From NCBI GenBank assembly GCA_021513695.1, contig CP084166.1, positions 2,720,001 through 2,784,000 of the forward strand: a stretch of DNA of 64,000 nucleotides, given 5' to 3'. Below the pieces are notes generated by a model. It searched no databases and was not told the DNA's origin. It worked only from the letters and a program-made list of their open reading frames with translations. The stretch's first letter is position 1. Each line of letters begins with the position of its first letter. The DNA is from Candidatus Heimdallarchaeum aukensis (lineage in GTDB: Archaea; Asgardarchaeota; Heimdallarchaeia; Heimdallarchaeales; Heimdallarchaeaceae). The translations under genes and the position numbers were made by a program. Positions 5,802 through 14,363 of the stretch are shown here, in pieces.

Positions 5802-6629
5802 TTAGAATAATTGCTTTAATTGTTCAATTTTTTCTGCAGAATAATTATTTCTTTTCATTATTTTAAGAGCTTTATCGTAATATTCCTGTGCTTTTTTCTT
5901 CTTTTCTAGTTTAAGATATATCTTTGCTATTTGCATAACTATTGTAACCAGAAAGTCATCTTGTTTCTTATGTTCAAAATAAGACATTGCAGATAGAAAG
6001 TAATTTAATGCATCTTTTTCATTTTCTGTTGAGAGAGAAAGTAAAGCTAAGTCTATCTCTGCTAATGCTTTTTTTTCTTCAGCTTTTGCCTTCTTAAACA
6101 ATTGTATTGCTTTTTGATAAGCCAACTTAGTATTTTGAACAGAATTAGGGTTCTGTACATCTTTTAAAAGAGTATTTCCTATTTCTTTCCACGAATCACC
6201 TAAATGTTCTATAGATCCTATATCTTCAAAAAGTTCCTTTGAAATATCTAAAAATTTTATACTTTTTTCTATATTTTTGCATTCTCTGTGAAGAGAACCC
6301 ATCTTTAATGCACATTCAGCAGCCTTCTCAATATTTTGAATTTCAGTGAACTTAATGAAAGCTTCATTGAGAGACTTTAAGGCATAGTTCATCTGGTTCA
6401 AATTTAAGTATGCATGACCTAAAATAAACATACTTTCCGCAGCTAATTCCTTTGAATTTAAAGTTGAAAAAAGACTCTCTGCAAACTGTAGGTCTCTTAC
6501 ACACTTTTCATAATTCCCTTTTTCAAAATTAATTTTACCTTGATTAAAATACATGTTTGCTTGAGCTTTATGCGGATTAGCTGCTTCGACCATATGTGTA
6601 CTATTTGATTTTTCTTTTTTTAAATTCAT
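5802..6629 (-). CDS. TPR-repeat protein
   Basis: Repeated 34-residue helical units with the TPR pattern (A/G/Y/L spacing). The track start at 6641 is TTG; the nearest ATG is at 6629. Confidence 0.6.
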   Translation of the reverse strand: MNLKKEKSNSTHMVEAANPHKAQANMYFNQGKINFEKGNYEKCVRDLQFAESLFSTLNSKELAAESMFILGHAYLNLNQMNYALKSLNEAFIKFTEIQNIEKAAECALKMGSLHRECKNIEKSIKFLDISKELFEDIGSIEHLGDSWKEIGNTLLKDVQNPNSVQNTKLAYQKAIQLFKKAKAEEKKALAEIDLALLSLSTENEKDALNYFLSAMSYFEHKKQDDFLVTIVMQIAKIYLKLEKKKKAQEYYDKALKIMKRNNYSAEKIEQLKQLF

Positions 6630-6920
6630 GGATAGTACCAATTAGAAATTTTAATAGAAACGTAATACTCTCGATTTTTTTGAGAAAAGAGTAATTAAAA
6701 ATTAATGGAAAATGGATAAACTACAGTTTAATAATTAATCCTCTTTTGGTTTTTGTTATTAAAAAGTTTAAACTTATTTAAGCTATTCTCTATTTATATA
6801 GTTGTCATCACCTAATTTTGACAAGGAATCTATAAAAAAAGAAAAAAAAGAAAAAAATTTAGGCGCGAAATAGATAATTTTTGCTAGCTAAAGAAAAAGA
6901 AATAATTAAATTAGAAAAGC

Positions 6921-6928
6921 TTTATAAA
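6921..6928 (+). promoter_or_regulatory. candidate archaeal TATA box (tttataaa) upstream of tbp
   Basis: TATA-like octamer about 25 nt upstream of where a transcript for the 6977 start would begin. Motifs of this kind are ambiguous in AT-rich DNA. Confidence 0.25.
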
Positions 6929-6976
6929 GGCTATAAAGAAATCGACATGAATTTAAAAAAAAGGTGTTTAAAACCA

Positions 6977-7552
6977 ATGACAAAATTAGATTTTGGTATA
7001 GTAATACAAAATGTAGTAGCAAGTATAAATCTGTACTGCACTATTGATTTAGTGAATGCTTATCAGATGCTTATTGATGACGATCAACTTTTTGTTTCTT
7101 ACAACCCTGAAACTTTTCCTGGTTTGATTCTTAAAATTAAAAAACCAAAAATTTCTTCTCTAGTTTTTTCTAGCGGCAAACTTGTTTTAACTGGCGCTAA
7201 ATCCACTGATATGGTAAATAAAGGCGTTCAACAGATGATTAAAATACTAAGATCTGTTGGCACAGAGATTACTGAAGAGCCTGAAATTATTGTTCAAAAC
7301 ATTGTTGCTAGCGGACATTTTAACAACCGTTCTATTAACTTAGAACTTGCTTCTTTATGGTTAGACCATTCTATGTATGAACCTGAACAATTTCCAGGTT
7401 TAATTTATCGTTTAGCTGAACCAAAAACAGTCTTACTTCTTTTCCAGAGTGGTAATCTTGTTTGTACTGGAGCTAAAACTGAAGAGCAAGTGCGGCAAGC
7501 AGTTGAAAATACGTATAACCACTTAGACGAAATTAATGCCTTTGAATTTTAA
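6977..7552 (+). CDS. tbp: TATA-box-binding protein
   Basis: Two direct repeats carrying NVVASINL.. and NIVASGHF.. plus (S/T)GKLV(L/C)TGAK, the hallmark of TBP. The track ORF begins at a TTG at 6881. The spacing to the first repeat favours ATG 6977 (MTKLDFGIV...). ATG 6947 is an alternative. Confidence 0.9.
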   Translation: MTKLDFGIVIQNVVASINLYCTIDLVNAYQMLIDDDQLFVSYNPETFPGLILKIKKPKISSLVFSSGKLVLTGAKSTDMVNKGVQQMIKILRSVGTEITEEPEIIVQNIVASGHFNNRSINLELASLWLDHSMYEPEQFPGLIYRLAEPKTVLLLFQSGNLVCTGAKTEEQVRQAVENTYNHLDEINAFEF

Positions 7553-7636: not shown

Positions 7637-9223
7637 TTATTTTTCTATAATTGTTAAATAGTTCTTCTGTACATTTTCACTTACTGATACAATTTCCACC
7701 TTCTTGAATTTTTGAGGAGACTTTATCAGCTCATATATTAATAAAATATCAAATTCTTCAAAATGCTTCTGTCTTACTACTGAATCAGGTACTATATGTC
7801 CTATTATTTGATATCCATCAAAAATTCTTTTTTTCTTGTTTAACGATTTCTCGTTTACAGTTGAGCCTGATAACAGTAGAGAACACATCTCATTTTCATA
7901 AGTTATTGCATTTATTAACAAAATCTCTATATTTTTTATTATTTCTTCGTTTTTCTTTTCATGTGTTATTGAACTTATTGCAGGGGTTATATGAATAACA
8001 TCTTTTAGATTTTCTATGATTTTTTTCTTGATATCATTTCTTTTCAAACCAAATATTGCATCAGAATCGGTTATTGCGGATCGATATTTGTAAACTCCGG
8101 GTTTTCCAAGCAAACTATCAGAATCTGTTTTAATCTTTAGATTTTTTAATTTAACAATGTCACTAGAAGATGAAGCAAGGTCGTAAACCATAGTAATATT
8201 TATTGCATTAGCCAACAAGTAAGCATAGTTTTTTCTTATTCGTTGTTGTTCATCATCTGTCAACTTTTTAGTATTTTTCAAAGCTTCAGGAAAAATGGAT
8301 AGAGCTTTAGAATATCCTTTATAATCACCTAATCCATTTGCGATAGCAGCATAAAGAATAGATTTTTTAGTTGTTTTATGTTGTTTTACAAAGTCTAAAA
8401 GTAAGGGTAGAATTCGCTCTACTTGCTCATCAGAAATCTTGCTCATCATTGTTAGAATGGATAACCTTTTTGCTATTTCGTTAGGATTTTTAACTTTAGA
8501 GAGTGTACGTAGAACTAGATTAACTCCATCTACAACCATTGATTTATACTTAGGTGCAACTATTAATCCTTGATTTTCGCTAAAAAGGTGAAGAAAAAAG
8601 TCTGAGGCCATATGTAGTTTTGTAGATGAATAAGCATTATCTTTAACTATTTCTATTACTTTCTTACATGAGTCTGCAGCATCGTTGATTTTTTTGTTAA
8701 ACATATGCATTAATCCGATATTTACTTCTGTGTATACCAAATTTTCTACCATGTTGTTTTTTTCTGCTATTTGCTTCGATTTAATGAGATATTCAAGAGC
8801 TTTATCCTTTTCCAGAGTTCTATAAATGGCAAACAGAAGATTTAAGGACTTAACTATCAATTCGGGGTTATTTATTTTATATGCCATATTTTTTGCTTTT
8901 TCTGCAGCTTTTCTTGCCCCTTCATATTCATTGTTTATCATAAAAGAATTAGCTAAGTTTAGGTAAAACCTAACATAATTCTCTCTTGAAGATAAAGGAA
9001 TTAAAGGTTTTATTCTTTTAAGGAGAATTAAAGCTTGAGAACGTTTTTCTTCTAATAACAATTCATATGTTTCGGATAAAAGAAAATCAACAAAACTGCT
9101 GATATCCATCTCTCTCTCGATTTCAAGATCAGATAATAGTTGTTTTCTCTTTTTATTATCTACGACAATTTCCTTTAACTCATCGACGCTAAAAGCTCCA
9201 ATGTACTTAACTACATCGCTCAT
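7637..9223 (-). CDS. hypothetical protein with TPR-like helical repeats
   Basis: Long ORF with ATG start, co-directional and immediately downstream of hisS. Helical-repeat character in the central part. No confident family. Confidence 0.5.
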   Translation of the reverse strand: MSDVVKYIGAFSVDELKEIVVDNKKRKQLLSDLEIEREMDISSFVDFLLSETYELLLEEKRSQALILLKRIKPLIPLSSRENYVRFYLNLANSFMINNEYEGARKAAEKAKNMAYKINNPELIVKSLNLLFAIYRTLEKDKALEYLIKSKQIAEKNNMVENLVYTEVNIGLMHMFNKKINDAADSCKKVIEIVKDNAYSSTKLHMASDFFLHLFSENQGLIVAPKYKSMVVDGVNLVLRTLSKVKNPNEIAKRLSILTMMSKISDEQVERILPLLLDFVKQHKTTKKSILYAAIANGLGDYKGYSKALSIFPEALKNTKKLTDDEQQRIRKNYAYLLANAINITMVYDLASSSSDIVKLKNLKIKTDSDSLLGKPGVYKYRSAITDSDAIFGLKRNDIKKKIIENLKDVIHITPAISSITHEKKNEEIIKNIEILLINAITYENEMCSLLLSGSTVNEKSLNKKKRIFDGYQIIGHIVPDSVVRQKHFEEFDILLIYELIKSPQKFKKVEIVSVSENVQKNYLTIIEK

Positions 9224-9241
9224 ACTTCACCACTACCACTT

Positions 9242-10744
9242 TTATTCTGTGTTAACTATTTTTCTTAGTTCGTCCTCTATTCCTTCAATTGGAAGTAATG
9301 TTTGTTCTCCTGTTTCAAGGTTTCGTAGAGTTACTTTATTTTGCTCTAGTTCTCTTTTTCCAACTATTATCATGTGTTTAATTTTTCTAGCAGCTGCATC
9401 TTCTAATTGGTTGGATAATTTCCATCCAAAAGGGTTGAACAAGACTCTAAACTCTTTTCTTAGTCTTGCAGTTATATCTGCCGCTTCCTTTATAACTTTC
9501 TTATTTACAGGAGCAACATAAAAATCTACTTTTTGACAATAAGTAGGTAACCTTCCCAAATCTTCTAAGATTGCCATTAATACGGTTTCTCCCATCCCTA
9601 TTCCAGTTGCAGGTATCTTTTCTCCACCGAAACTTGAGACCAATTGATCATATCTTCCACCACCAGCTATGGCTCTTACAACAGAACCAGTACGATCAAA
9701 AAATTCATAGACAATACCCGTATAATAATCTAAACCTCTAGCAATTGAAGCATTATATTCACAATTATTGATAACTCCAAAATATTCTAAATAAATAGCT
9801 AGTTCTCTTAATTTTTCTAATGCTAAACTAGCTTTCTCTCCCAAATCCAATTTTGAAATTTCTTCGAGGAAGAAAGAAGGCGTCCCTTTAGTTTTTGAAA
9901 AAAAGTATACCTTCTCTGCAATTTCTTCATCCAACCCTATTTTTATGAGCGTTTCAATGATTTTCTGTTTCTCTATTTCTGGGGAAAGTTCGTAATAATA
10001 ATTTATGTACTCCTTATCTTTATTGGATAAGTTTGGGAACTCTTTCTCTTTTTTTTGCTTTTTTAGTCTAACAAAAGTTGCAATTTCTTTTGCTTTAGAA
10101 GCAGTAAATTTTTTTTCTAAAAGTTCTTCTACAATAAAATCTTGGATGTACTTCTCTTTTGAATCTAAAACTTTGATTACATCAAGGTAATTTTCAATTC
10201 CTAAGTATTCAATATAACTTTGAACTAACTCTCTACTATTTATTACACAGATAAATTCTCCATCTTTTAATCCACTAGTTTTAATAATGTTACATGTTAA
10301 AGCAATAATTTCTGCATCAGCTGCAGGGTGATCGACACCTATAATATCTGCATTAAATTGAAAAAATTCTCTTACTCTCCCTTTCTGAGGAGTTTCATTT
10401 CTAAAAATTCTAGGTATTGAAAACCAGCGGATTGGTTTAGGATAACGTTGTTGTTCATTTACAATCATTCTAGCTAAAGTGGGTGTTTGCTCTGGACGAA
10501 GAACAAGTTTTCGATCATCTTTACCTTTAACAATAAAAGTCTCTTCTAATATTTCCTCACCTGATTTAATCTCAATTAATTTTGCATATTCTAAAGAAGG
10601 GCCTTCGTATTCCTCATAACCAAAACTTTCAGAGACTTTTTTCATAATATCTAGAATGTAGTTTACCTTCGCAAAATCTGCAGGATAATAATCTCGAAAA
10701 CCTTTAATTCCTTTTAGTATCTCCTTAAGTACTCCGTCATCCAT
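9242..10744 (-). CDS. hisS: histidyl-tRNA synthetase (class II aaRS)
   Basis: N-terminal KGFRDYYP, class II motifs, GGGRYD and the C-terminal anticodon-binding domain. About 80 extra K/E-rich residues sit in the insertion domain. Confidence 0.9.
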   Translation of the reverse strand: MDDGVLKEILKGIKGFRDYYPADFAKVNYILDIMKKVSESFGYEEYEGPSLEYAKLIEIKSGEEILEETFIVKGKDDRKLVLRPEQTPTLARMIVNEQQRYPKPIRWFSIPRIFRNETPQKGRVREFFQFNADIIGVDHPAADAEIIALTCNIIKTSGLKDGEFICVINSRELVQSYIEYLGIENYLDVIKVLDSKEKYIQDFIVEELLEKKFTASKAKEIATFVRLKKQKKEKEFPNLSNKDKEYINYYYELSPEIEKQKIIETLIKIGLDEEIAEKVYFFSKTKGTPSFFLEEISKLDLGEKASLALEKLRELAIYLEYFGVINNCEYNASIARGLDYYTGIVYEFFDRTGSVVRAIAGGGRYDQLVSSFGGEKIPATGIGMGETVLMAILEDLGRLPTYCQKVDFYVAPVNKKVIKEAADITARLRKEFRVLFNPFGWKLSNQLEDAAARKIKHMIIVGKRELEQNKVTLRNLETGEQTLLPIEGIEDELRKIVNTE

Positions 10745-10863
10745 TTAATTTCAAAGACAATTTCCAGAGGAGTTTAAATAATTTAGCTTCTTTAAGATAT
10801 TTCTAGATATATGCCAGTAGAAAAATTAAGGAAAAAAAAAGAATAAATGTTAAAATGATCTAT

Positions 10864-11844
10864 CTATTCATCTTGAAAATCTCTTATTAGGGTAACTTCA
10901 AAGAGTGGTGCAGCTTTTACAGACCAGAAAACTTGTTTATCTATTATATTGCTTAGAAGGTAACGCGTTATTTCAGTTTCAGTTAAACCTGTTTTTGTTT
11001 TCTTGATACCTTGTAAATCCTTCACAAATTCTATCAACAATTTCGTTAATAGATTTGTAGATCTTATTTGTTCCATTCTGGTGGTAACTAACCAACACGA
11101 AACAGAATCATCAGCAGCCATGATAAACTGACGGTCTCTATATTTCAAAATTTCAATTATAGGAAAATGACTAGAAGAAAATTTACACTGAATGACTGGA
11201 GATAAAATATCAGAGTTCAAATTAGATTGAGGAGTAGTTAATCTCATCTCGTAAACTCCCTTATCAGTTTTGATGTAAGAAATAAACATCTCAACAGTTA
11301 TTTTGTCAACTATTAATTGTTGGATAATGCTTGAAGCTAACCAATTAATTGTTCTATCAAAATTTTTTCCTGAACTAAAGGATGTGCTTAAATACTCGAT
11401 GTTTTTTTTTCTTACTCCATCTGAAAATTTCTTAACTATGGATTTTACTTCAGAGTTAGAGAATTCTTCATCTCTCATGTTAAATAATACTAAAACAGGA
11501 TTTTCTTCTTTTAACCAATTTAAAGAGCGAGTAAACCACTTTTTAGATTCATGTAGCTGATCTTTTTTAGTAATATCTGTAACATAAATAAGTGCATCAG
11601 AGCGAGAAATAAAACTCTTCCATAAGGTCTTTCTAAAAGAAGGAAGACCACCTAAATCAGTAATATCTAATATTATACCATCGGCATTATATAACTCGTG
11701 GTTAACTCCCATTGTAGAAGTGATAATGGTGTTGTTGTAACCTAATAGACGGTTAATGAAATAAGTTTTGCCAGAATTTTCTAATCCAGCAACAGTAACA
11801 GAAATATCACGTTTCAAATAATAATAATTCGGTGACACATCCAA
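10864..11844 (-). CDS. small GTPase with C-terminal roadblock/longin-like domain (Rag/Gtr- or MglA-like)
   Basis: P-loop GLENSGKT, switch II DLGG and an NMRD (NKxD-like) motif lie in the first ~175 aa. The following ~150 aa form an alpha/beta domain. The start codon is TTG. Confidence 0.55.
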   Translation of the reverse strand: MDVSPNYYYLKRDISVTVAGLENSGKTYFINRLLGYNNTIITSTMGVNHELYNADGIILDITDLGGLPSFRKTLWKSFISRSDALIYVTDITKKDQLHESKKWFTRSLNWLKEENPVLVLFNMRDEEFSNSEVKSIVKKFSDGVRKKNIEYLSTSFSSGKNFDRTINWLASSIIQQLIVDKITVEMFISYIKTDKGVYEMRLTTPQSNLNSDILSPVIQCKFSSSHFPIIEILKYRDRQFIMAADDSVSCWLVTTRMEQIRSTNLLTKLLIEFVKDLQGIKKTKTGLTETEITRYLLSNIIDKQVFWSVKAAPLFEVTLIRDFQDE

Positions 11845-12274
11845 TCCCCAGCAATAGGTAACCCCGAAACGATCTTCATCGTAAGTAGATGTAAATTGAA
11901 TATTAAGAAGAAATACTTCTTAGTATATTCAGATTTTTAACATCCAATGAAGATTGTTTATTAAACTAGTATTAACAATATAAATATATAATTATATCGT
12001 TTTTAGTTTAAATGAACTTCTTTTAAAGTTAAAATCGTTGAAAAAAAAATTAGAGGATTGAATTAGATGAAATTACAAGAAAAAAATCAAAAAAGAGGAA
12101 GAAAGAAAAACAAAAAAAAAGCTTTTAGTTAAATTGGGAGACTGCTACTTAAAAAGAATTATCTGAACCTATAAATAGAAAGTAATGCTTATAAATGCGT
12201 CTGGTTTTCGTTGTTATAGTTAGTATAAGGAAATTTATTGTTCAAAGTGAACAAAAAGAAAAAGGTGAAATTAT

Positions 12275-13282
12275 TTGAGTTTAAAAGGATATATACTCAG
12301 ACGAACAATCTACATAGTTCCTATTATGCTTGCAATTACACTAATGAACTTTACACTGATTAACATCAGTCCAGGAGATCCTGTTTTAGTAAGATTAGGA
12401 CTGATTAAATGTGAAACACCTGAATGTTACAACGCAGCGTACAACAAAGAAGCAATAGAAATGGGACTACTAGATAATAGTTTATACACTGTTCCATGGT
12501 TCGAAAGATATATAGATTTTGTAAATGATCTATTGCATTTCGACCTAGGAAAAAGCTGGTCATATACCCAAGCAGGAGAAGGGATACCGATATCGAAAAT
12601 AATTGGAGACCACGCAGTTTATACGGTGGTGCTAAACTTACTATCATTTGTTTTATCACTATTATTATCAACAGCAATAGGGGTAGTATCAGCAACAAGA
12701 CAAAACAGTTTCTGGGATAGAACACTAACAGTAGCAATGCTATTAGGATATTCTATGCCTTTGTTCTGGTTAGCAAAATTGTTAATGCTAGTGTCCTATT
12801 ATTTATTTAACTTTACAGGAGTAGCAAACAAATCGGCGTTTAACAAACCGTTAATACTGAACCCGATGTTCTATAAGTTCTTAATATTACCAACATTGTC
12901 ACTAACACTGGGTGGACTAGTGTTCATGGCAAGGTTAATTAGATCACAACTGCTGGAGATATTAAGACAAGATTACATAACAACTGCAAAATCAAAAGGA
13001 TTAGATAGAAGAGCAGTAATATACAAACACGCGTTCAGAAATGGTTTATTGCCTATAGTAACAATTATAGGAAATTCACTACCAGGATTACTATCCGGGT
13101 CAGTAATGGTTGAGTCAGTCTTCGGATGGCCAGGATTAGGAACAATATTCCTAGAAGCTGCATTTATGAGAGATTATCCAATGATGATGGCAACAAACAC
13201 AATATTTCCATTCCTGTTCCTAATAGCAAGATTGCTGACAGATATAACCTATGTCTTTATAGACCCGAGAATAAAATACTAA
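12275..13282 (+). CDS. dppB: ABC peptide transporter permease, DppB/OppB type
   Basis: Characteristic N-terminus YILRRTIYIVPIMLAITLMNF...SPGDPV and the BPD-transport core. TTG start 7 nt after GGTGA. Confidence 0.85.
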   Translation: MSLKGYILRRTIYIVPIMLAITLMNFTLINISPGDPVLVRLGLIKCETPECYNAAYNKEAIEMGLLDNSLYTVPWFERYIDFVNDLLHFDLGKSWSYTQAGEGIPISKIIGDHAVYTVVLNLLSFVLSLLLSTAIGVVSATRQNSFWDRTLTVAMLLGYSMPLFWLAKLLMLVSYYLFNFTGVANKSAFNKPLILNPMFYKFLILPTLSLTLGGLVFMARLIRSQLLEILRQDYITTAKSKGLDRRAVIYKHAFRNGLLPIVTIIGNSLPGLLSGSVMVESVFGWPGLGTIFLEAAFMRDYPMMMATNTIFPFLFLIARLLTDITYVFIDPRIKY

Positions 13283-13301
13283 AAGAGGAGAGTAAAGAAA
13301 A

Positions 13302-14363
13302 ATGGCAACAGTTGATAAAAAAGCAGTAGAAGAGGAAGGACCAATTCTAGATGAAACAACTTTAAAAGAAATTGAAAGCATGAAAGGAGCAGGACAATGG
13401 TCTATTGTATGGAGAAGATTGAAAAAGGATACAATGGGAATGGTAGGATTATACATTGTAACATTCCTAATATTGATGGCAATAGTGTCCTGGTTCTTAC
13501 TAATGTACGATAAATGGCTATTTAATAATGTAGCACTAACAAGAGATCCAGATAATCCATACTCACTAGCTAATCTATATGTAGACTTCTGGCTACCTGG
13601 AATGAAGGAACCAATAATACTGTTCCAACATCCAGAATGGCAATTCGCAGATCAAGTAAAATTGCCACCAAGCATTGAACACCCATTTGGAACAGATAAA
13701 AACGGAAGAGATATGTTCTCAAGAGTGTTCTTTGGAGCTACAATATCAATGGCTCTAGGTTTCATTGGACAAATGACAACCGTAATCATCGGAACAATTT
13801 TAGGATCACTTTCTGGATATTATGGTGGATTATTTGACGACATCCTACAAAGAATAGTAGAATTACTATACTCAATGCCTGGATTTATCTTGCTAGTGTT
13901 CGTAATCGTGCTATTCGAAAATACAAATATACCAGGAGGAAGATACGCAGTAGTAGTAATATTCTTCTCACTAATAAGCTGGGGAGGAACAGCACTTATA
14001 GTAAGATCGAACTTCTTCTCGCTAAAACAACAAGACTTTGTAGAAGCAGAAAAAGCACTAGGGGCAGCAGACATGAGAATAATATTCAGACATATACTAC
14101 CAAACTCACTAGCACCACTGATAATTATAATAACGCTAGGTATAGCAGGAACAATATTCACATTCGCAGCACTAGCATTCTACGGATTCGGAGACCCAAA
14201 CGTCGTTTCCTGGGGTGACGACCTTAACCGCTGGCAAAATGATCTCATGACTTATCCGTGGATGCCCATGTTTCCCGCTCTAATGATATTTTTCACAGTG
14301 TTGGGTTTCAACTTACTTGGTGACGCCCTTCGTGATGCTCTTGATCCTCGTTTGAAAGATTAA
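13302..14363 (+). CDS. dppC: ABC peptide transporter permease, DppC/OppC type
   Basis: EHPFGTDKNGRDMFSRVFFGATISM motif and six predicted TM segments. It follows dppB by 19 nt. Confidence 0.85.
   Translation: MATVDKKAVEEEGPILDETTLKEIESMKGAGQWSIVWRRLKKDTMGMVGLYIVTFLILMAIVSWFLLMYDKWLFNNVALTRDPDNPYSLANLYVDFWLPGMKEPIILFQHPEWQFADQVKLPPSIEHPFGTDKNGRDMFSRVFFGATISMALGFIGQMTTVIIGTILGSLSGYYGGLFDDILQRIVELLYSMPGFILLVFVIVLFENTNIPGGRYAVVVIFFSLISWGGTALIVRSNFFSLKQQDFVEAEKALGAADMRIIFRHILPNSLAPLIIIITLGIAGTIFTFAALAFYGFGDPNVVSWGDDLNRWQNDLMTYPWMPMFPALMIFFTVLGFNLLGDALRDALDPRLKD

Follow-up and report, generated by a model that had tools for sequence, protein, structure and literature searches.

What kind of small GTPase is encoded on the reverse strand at 10864-11838 of a 64,000-nucleotide stretch of the Candidatus Heimdallarchaeum aukensis genome (contig CP084166.1, positions 2,720,001 to 2,784,000; this whole stretch is called the window here)? 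The product of 324 aa consists of a nucleotide-binding domain, residues 1 to ~177 (11308-11838), and a second domain of approximately residues 178-324 (10867-11307). Its relatives bear public names such as 'GTPase Era' and '50S ribosome-binding GTPase'. A first-pass annotation of this DNA, made from the letters and open reading frames (ORFs), described a eukaryote-like small GTPase of Rag/Gtr-like architecture with a roadblock or longin-type C-terminal domain. In this study, the G domain is assigned on sequence grounds to the Arf family, and within it to the ArfR class, and it is fused to a C-terminal longin domain. Rag/Gtr is rejected as the family of this protein, and the likeness lies only in the architecture, a G domain followed by a platform domain.

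The family assignment comes from profile scores. The Pfam Arf model (PF00025) matched residues 11-172 of the window GTPase with 68.4 bits (E=7e-19) against a cut-off of 22.3, and MMR_HSR1 (31 bits), Roc, Ras and SRPRB all scored far below it. No match to Gtr1_RagA was found for the window GTPase in Pfam at E<=1. Arf was the best Pfam family in all 14 members of the GTPase family tested. Among families of specific identity SRPRB came second, with matches in 13 of the 14 members and a best value of 2.7e-13; the window GTPase itself reached 22.8 bits on this model, below the Pfam cut-off of 25. Weak Gtr1_RagA matches were obtained from five of the 14 members (best 1.5e-9), far under their Arf scores. 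Three Asgard Rag-like proteins, used as controls, scored 64.6-98.8 bits on Gtr1_RagA, each above its own Arf score. The test therefore discriminates between the two families and places the GTPase family on the Arf side.

The nearest solved sequences to the G domain are human Arl8A/B (8e-15) and the Asgard ArfR proteins 8OUM and 8OUK (~1e-13). The comparison with Rag and Arf structures was carried out with Foldseek on the full-length model, and the G domain aligned to Arl8b (5.6e-12) and HodArfR1 (3.7e-11). The same model aligned to the Asgard RagA-like protein LokiRagO (8yl2_B) over 312 columns, with E 3.7e-11 and 17% identity. Moreover, Table S1 of Vargová et al. (bioRxiv 2024 / Nat Microbiol 2025) enters RLG13289.1, an orthologue with 88% identity, under 'ArfR, Heimdallarchaeaceae'.

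In two AlphaFold models the tail of ~150 residues behind the G domain forms an alpha/beta domain of its own, just as the first-pass annotation had it. The full-length model has a mean confidence (pLDDT) of 79 and a predicted template-modelling score (pTM) of 0.73, and the model of the C-terminal domain alone has a pLDDT of 80 and a pTM of 0.79; the alignments behind these models are shallow, with 13-18 sequences. By blocks of ten residues, the pLDDT of the G domain is 87-96 for residues 61-160, and it is lower for the first ~10 residues and for switch I and the interswitch, residues 31-60 (69-74). Strands (E) and helices (H) of the C-terminal model are E9-17, E21-28, H36-39, E54-60, E63-69, E73-80, H85-108, H114-127 and E139-147, which gives the order b1-b2-(short helix/loop)-b3-b4-b5-a-a-b6. 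Helix a1 is short, the loop around it is modelled with low confidence, and E139-147 is an extra C-terminal strand (b6). Longin domains follow the order bb-a-bbb-aa, which ends in two helices and does not begin with one, whereas roadblock domains have one helix at each end, a-bb-a-bbb-a (Tran et al. 2024, PMC10933270). The lack of an N-terminal helix together with the two C-terminal helices thus denotes the longin order and not that of roadblock.

In structural comparisons the model scored 8.9 against the longin domain of NPRL3, 8.8 against Sec22b and VAMP7, 8.7 against TRAPPC4, 8.4 against Lst4, 8.1 against NPRL2 (yeast Npr2) and 8.0 against the Lokiarchaeal longin 8yqg. A profile of residues ~176-326 retrieved nothing except family members from 1.84 billion representative proteins, and a C-terminal profile gave no match among PDB sequences. 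Thirteen C-terminal domains searched against Pfam up to E<=10 returned noise only, with E of at least 0.05. As modelled, the C-terminal domain is a divergent longin domain without detectable sequence relatives. Of the roadblock/longin-type domain proposed earlier, the separate alpha/beta superfold is thereby upheld with longin as the best match, and roadblock is dropped.

Longins can also act as catalytic GTPase-activating proteins (GAPs), and those of the FLCN/SMCR8/NPRL2 type possess a GP motif directly before strand b2 plus an arginine finger (PMC12290439). The b1-b2 loop of the family lacks the GP motif; it reads K-T-x-x-G followed by V, I or L, and TDKG-V in the window. A catalytic GAP longin was rejected on this basis, and the window longin differs in the same motif from the longin GAP complexes FLCN-FNIP, GATOR1 NPRL2/3 and C9orf72-SMCR8. 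A conserved R/K is found at residue 238 of the GTPase.

The sequence motifs reported at first pass, GLENSGKT, DLGG and NMRD, are all present, and the HMMER alignment to Arl8 identifies them as P-loop, switch II and G4. On the reverse strand, the P-loop (G1) occupies 11764-11787, switch II (G3), DLGG with the following Leu, 11644-11658, and NMRD, a degenerate form of the canonical NKxD of G4, 11470-11481. Switch I reads STMGVN and fits the Arf pattern TxGxN. Invariant across 31-98% identity are the G, G, K and T of the P-loop GxxxxGKT, the switch I Thr, DxxG and the Asn of G4. From the invariant P-loop, switch I Thr and DxxG, binding of nucleotide and Mg2+ is very probably retained.

Other positions depart from those of classical Arfs. 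The Leu after DLGG aligns with the catalytic Gln75 of Arl8 (DIGGQ), and the family shows L, R, K, S or D at this position and Gln nowhere. The G4 pattern is N[MKTQ][RWK][DTKN], in which Asn alone is invariant, with NMRD, NKWT, NKWK and NQWN as examples. The N-terminal 11-19 residues, ahead of strand b1, are hydrophilic and little conserved, and their hydrophobic moment (muH) is 0.19-0.46 in the family, compared with 0.70-0.77 in Arf1 and Arl8b. In the model this stretch has a pLDDT <50 and no helix. By both hydrophobic moment and AlphaFold model the N-terminal amphipathic helix is absent from the GTPase family, and the short N-terminus provides no membrane anchor. This helix is a defining Arf feature according to Vargová et al., and it was predicted in only 45 of their 94 ArfRs, so its lack does not exclude membership of the ArfR class.

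The gene itself is real, since orthologues 31-98% identical share invariant motifs in both halves; its start had probably been set two codons too early. The mechanical ORF in the ORF list runs from 10864 to 11844 on the reverse strand and begins at a TTG at 11844. This TTG is not conserved, being TTA at the same place in H. endolithica, and the orthologues begin at GTG or ATG two codons past it. A Shine-Dalgarno-like string, GGGGAT, stands 5 nt before the GTG at 11838. Because of the orthologue starts, the TTA of H. endolithica and this string, the GTG at 11838 is probably the start codon; the stop codon is at 10864-10866. Read from this GTG, the product is identical at 324/324 residues to GenBank UJG40556.1 of Ca. 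Heimdallarchaeum aukensis.

Orthologues were collected by searching a 5.8-billion-protein collection twice and by scanning one genome for each GTDB species. The collection contains 29 or more clusters (90% identity) of full-length relatives of 311-347 aa, 31-98% identical to the window GTPase. Beyond them the score falls sharply from 428 to 94 bits, and generic single-domain Arf-like proteins come next. Full-length orthologues are encoded in 25 GTDB species genomes, all of them metagenome-assembled genomes (MAGs) labelled Heimdallarchaeota or Heimdallarchaeaceae save a few evident mislabels, in agreement with the Asgard lineage suggested at first pass. Residues invariant in both halves indicate a two-domain protein under purifying selection. 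The G domain diverges faster than the histidyl-tRNA synthetase (HisRS) encoded next to it, with 31-54% versus 54-68% identity.

We favour, with a probability of about 0.6, the reading in which this two-domain ArfR-longin protein works as a slow or partner-dependent switch on a longin platform for dimerisation or partner binding. The conserved motifs suggest that the protein, with nucleotide and Mg2+ bound, would still shift its switch conformation. The loss of the catalytic Gln, the amphipathic helix and a strict NKxD argues against on/off membrane cycling of the classical Arf type, and GTP hydrolysis would be slow unless a partner or a second copy supplied catalytic residues. By analogy with the Rag C-terminal dimer, SRbeta-SRX, TRAPP, Mon1-Ccz1 and GATOR1, the longin domain most likely provides a platform for dimerisation or for docking of a partner; it would keep the G domain within a complex and link its nucleotide state to the partner.

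The same losses could be taken to mean that the protein is a degenerate pseudo-GTPase, a scaffold without nucleotide cycling which is kept for protein-protein binding. The family-wide absence of the catalytic Gln, the unconserved Lys and Asp of G4 and the rapid divergence of the G domain relative to HisRS fit such a scaffold. However, the invariant GxxxxGKT, switch I Thr, DxxG and G4 Asn are the hallmark of a protein that still binds nucleotide and Mg2+, and this makes the pseudo-GTPase decidedly unlikely. An analogue of SRbeta-SRX, in which the longin would contact, in cis, the switch face of the G domain on the same chain, in the way SRX binds SRbeta-GTP, and form an auto-regulated module possibly tied to translation or targeting, also appears unlikely. 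SRX is not the closest longin, as NPRL3, Sec22b, VAMP7 and TRAPPC4 all score higher against the C-terminal domain, and the SRPRB score of the window protein stays under the cut-off. The eukaryotic pair consists of two separate proteins with SRbeta anchored at its N-terminus, whereas the window protein is a single chain and anchorless.

Two further readings have been largely or wholly set aside by the family scores and the fold of the tail. A Rag/Gtr orthologue would have a roadblock C-terminal domain, dimerise with a paralogue and report nutrient status. The protein does resemble RagA-D and Gtr1/2 in having a G domain plus a C-terminal alpha/beta platform of ~150 aa at a similar overall length; it aligns with LokiRagO along both domains, some family members touch the Gtr1_RagA model, and the gene adjoins that of an aminoacyl-tRNA synthetase. 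It differs from them in not belonging to the Gtr1_RagA family, in carrying a longin instead of a roadblock domain, and in lacking both a nearby paralogue and the catalytic Gln. We therefore consider Rag/Gtr orthology largely refuted and very improbable. The chance that GenBank names such as 'GTPase Era' are right, and that the gene encodes an ordinary prokaryotic ribosome-associated GTPase of the Era or EngB kind, is practically negligible. Apart from those names it could draw on the 31 bits of MMR_HSR1, which is a generic G-domain model and is outscored by Arf. The NCBIfam models gave 22.7 bits for Era against a cut-off of 237 and 13.4 bits for EngB/YsxC against a cut-off of 124; no KH domain is present, and the C-terminal domain is longin-like. 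These scores already refute the Era/EngB assignment at the sequence level, and the first-pass view of a eukaryote-like Ras-superfamily GTPase distinct from both was sound.

The gene had been described as standing alone. Its neighbours include no gene for a roadblock protein, a longin protein or a second small GTPase, and the 64-kb window yielded no further copy, yet it is not a lone gene, for HisRS and two TPR proteins are conserved neighbours. HisRS (9242-10744, reverse strand), with Pfam matches to tRNA-synt_His and HGTP_anticodon, follows 119 nt past the GTPase stop. A 528-aa TPR-like protein, called TPR-530 here (7637-9223, reverse strand), is the third member of the cluster and is 100% identical to K9W45_12060 of Ca. 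Heimdallarchaeum aukensis. The genes of the GTPase, HisRS and TPR-530 are contiguous on one strand in 24 of the 25 species genomes, and the trio is also intact in a separate contig that encodes a GTPase member of 31% identity. The sole break among the 25 genomes is in MAG 18H4_34, where a cassette of ~4.5 kb is inserted between GTPase and HisRS (locus L016, 6982-11447). This cassette comprises three candidate genes for BcrAD/HgdC-type ATPase/activator and dehydratase-like proteins, as judged from their sequences, plus a short reverse-strand ORF. The upstream flank of the GTPase gene varies, with an ABC permease, Cpn60 or a short-chain dehydrogenase.

In profile searches against Pfam and PDB, the N-terminal part of TPR-530 matched TPR models weakly, and the homologues found for the protein are all from Heimdall. 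Its C-terminal ~190 aa display strongly conserved stretches, MVYDL, DSDA, SLLxxGST, GYQIIGHxxP and KHxEEF; the same searches detected no family or solved relative of this part, and hhalign found no relation between TPR-530 and the longin domain. The HisRS of 500 aa has a long Lys/Glu-rich insertion between stretches of its catalytic core, so that tRNA-synt_His matches two separate stretches, and the length of the insertion is kept across Heimdall orthologues (498-504 aa).

Just after TPR-530, a TPR protein of ~265-279 aa is encoded in 22 of the 25 loci by tblastn, on the opposite strand and convergent in 21 of them. In the window it has 279 aa (5802-6641, reverse strand) and matches the Pfam family SNAP, soluble NSF attachment protein, with 33.8 bits (cut-off 25) as well as TPR models. 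A SNAP-like annotation of this neighbour was not upheld, as a PDB sequence search yielded generic TPR proteins only. In the Heimdallarchaeum genomes, and only there, a TATA-binding protein gene (6881-7552, forward strand) lies between the 528-aa gene and this SNAP-matching TPR gene; its start differs between public records, which give 191 aa and 223 aa. The two genes are directly convergent, with no TATA-binding protein gene between them, in more distant MAGs. On the other side of the GTPase gene, an intergenic region of 430 nt (11845-12274), very AT-rich and with long poly-T and poly-A runs, separates it from a divergent oligopeptide-type ABC permease operon (12275-14363).

Conserved adjacency could point to an operon. 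The gap between GTPase and HisRS (10745-10863 in the window; orthologous gaps in loci L012-L034) contains a TATA-like element ~30 nt upstream of the HisRS ATG. Many MAGs have TGAACAATAGTGTTAAATATTTTTCA at this place and Heimdallarchaeum has AAGCTAAATTATTTAAAC, so that the element is common within clades and different between them. A shared TATA-like element, CAAAACAGATTTATTT, precedes the gene of TPR-530, ~30 nt before its ATG in most genomes. A T-run comes after the stop codon of the window GTPase. The elements before HisRS and TPR-530 weaken the operon reading and suggest that both genes have putative promoters of their own despite their conserved adjacency. That other housekeeping genes nearby are syntenic as well also weighs against a strict operon.

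TPR-530, encoded two genes downstream, would be the leading candidate for the partner of the ArfR-longin protein. HisRS may be linked to the GTPase by function or only by position. It is a long shot that ArfR-longin, TPR-530 and HisRS form an archaeal module which reads aminoacylation or amino-acid status through a Gln-less Arf switch. If this were true, the module would be a functional parallel or forerunner of Rag-Ragulator-GATOR and LeuRS-Rag, or alternatively a parallel of the SRbeta-SRX pairing at the translation machinery.

Fusions of small GTPases to such domains are known in Asgard archaea: 26 of the 74 GTPases of MK-D1 carry longin or roadblock fusions (Tran et al. 2024, PMC10933270), some Asgard Arfs bear a longin domain at the N-terminus (Zhu et al. 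2025), and ArfRs with extra domains are mentioned by Vargová et al. The window protein shares with the Asgard ArfRs of Vargová et al. (8OUK, HodArfR1; 8OUM, GerdArfR1) an Arf-family G domain in sequence and fold, TxGxN in switch I, DxGG in switch II and the Heimdallarchaeaceae lineage. Unlike them, it has no amphipathic helix, no catalytic Gln and a degenerate G4, and it adds a C-terminal longin of ~150 aa, whereas the characterised ArfRs have 160-220 aa and a single domain. With the fusions of Tran et al., such as LokiRagO (8YL2), to which Foldseek aligns both of its domains, it shares the design of small GTPase plus platform. Those fusions are from Lokiarchaeia and Rag-like, and comparable proteins tested here score best on Gtr1_RagA; the window family, in contrast, is ArfR-like, is confined to Heimdall MAGs and has a C-terminal longin without sequence relatives.

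Rag-like GTPases with 76-99 bits on Gtr1_RagA and an intact WDLGGQ were observed in Promethearchaeota and Helarchaeota MAGs (L036, 4535-6058; L037, 5986-6897). One of the pair, 507 aa long, has further domains both before and after its G domain; the other, of 303 aa, has a C-terminal domain and is encoded directly upstream of a gene for a 600-aa aIF5B-like GTPase.

In the searchable literature we found no description of the ArfR-longin family or its C-terminal longin, nor of the loss of Gln and helix in the family or its HisRS-TPR neighbourhood. ArfR-longin is a lineage-restricted variant of the known Asgard theme of GTPase plus platform; it adds to this published theme rather than starting another. 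The misleading names 'GTPase Era' and '50S ribosome-binding GTPase' are corrected by the assignment, and the case illustrates how domain order, taken by itself, can suggest a 'Rag-like architecture' and mask another combination of families. Arf GTPases and longin or roadblock platforms belong to the core of eukaryotic membrane traffic and nutrient signalling, and their Asgard versions serve to reconstruct how the eukaryotic machinery arose. In the arrangement specific to Heimdallarchaeaceae, an ArfR G domain has lost its membrane helix and catalytic Gln and gained a fused longin. It joins GTPase and longin in one natural chain that can serve as a model of such pairs, and a candidate partner is encoded close by.
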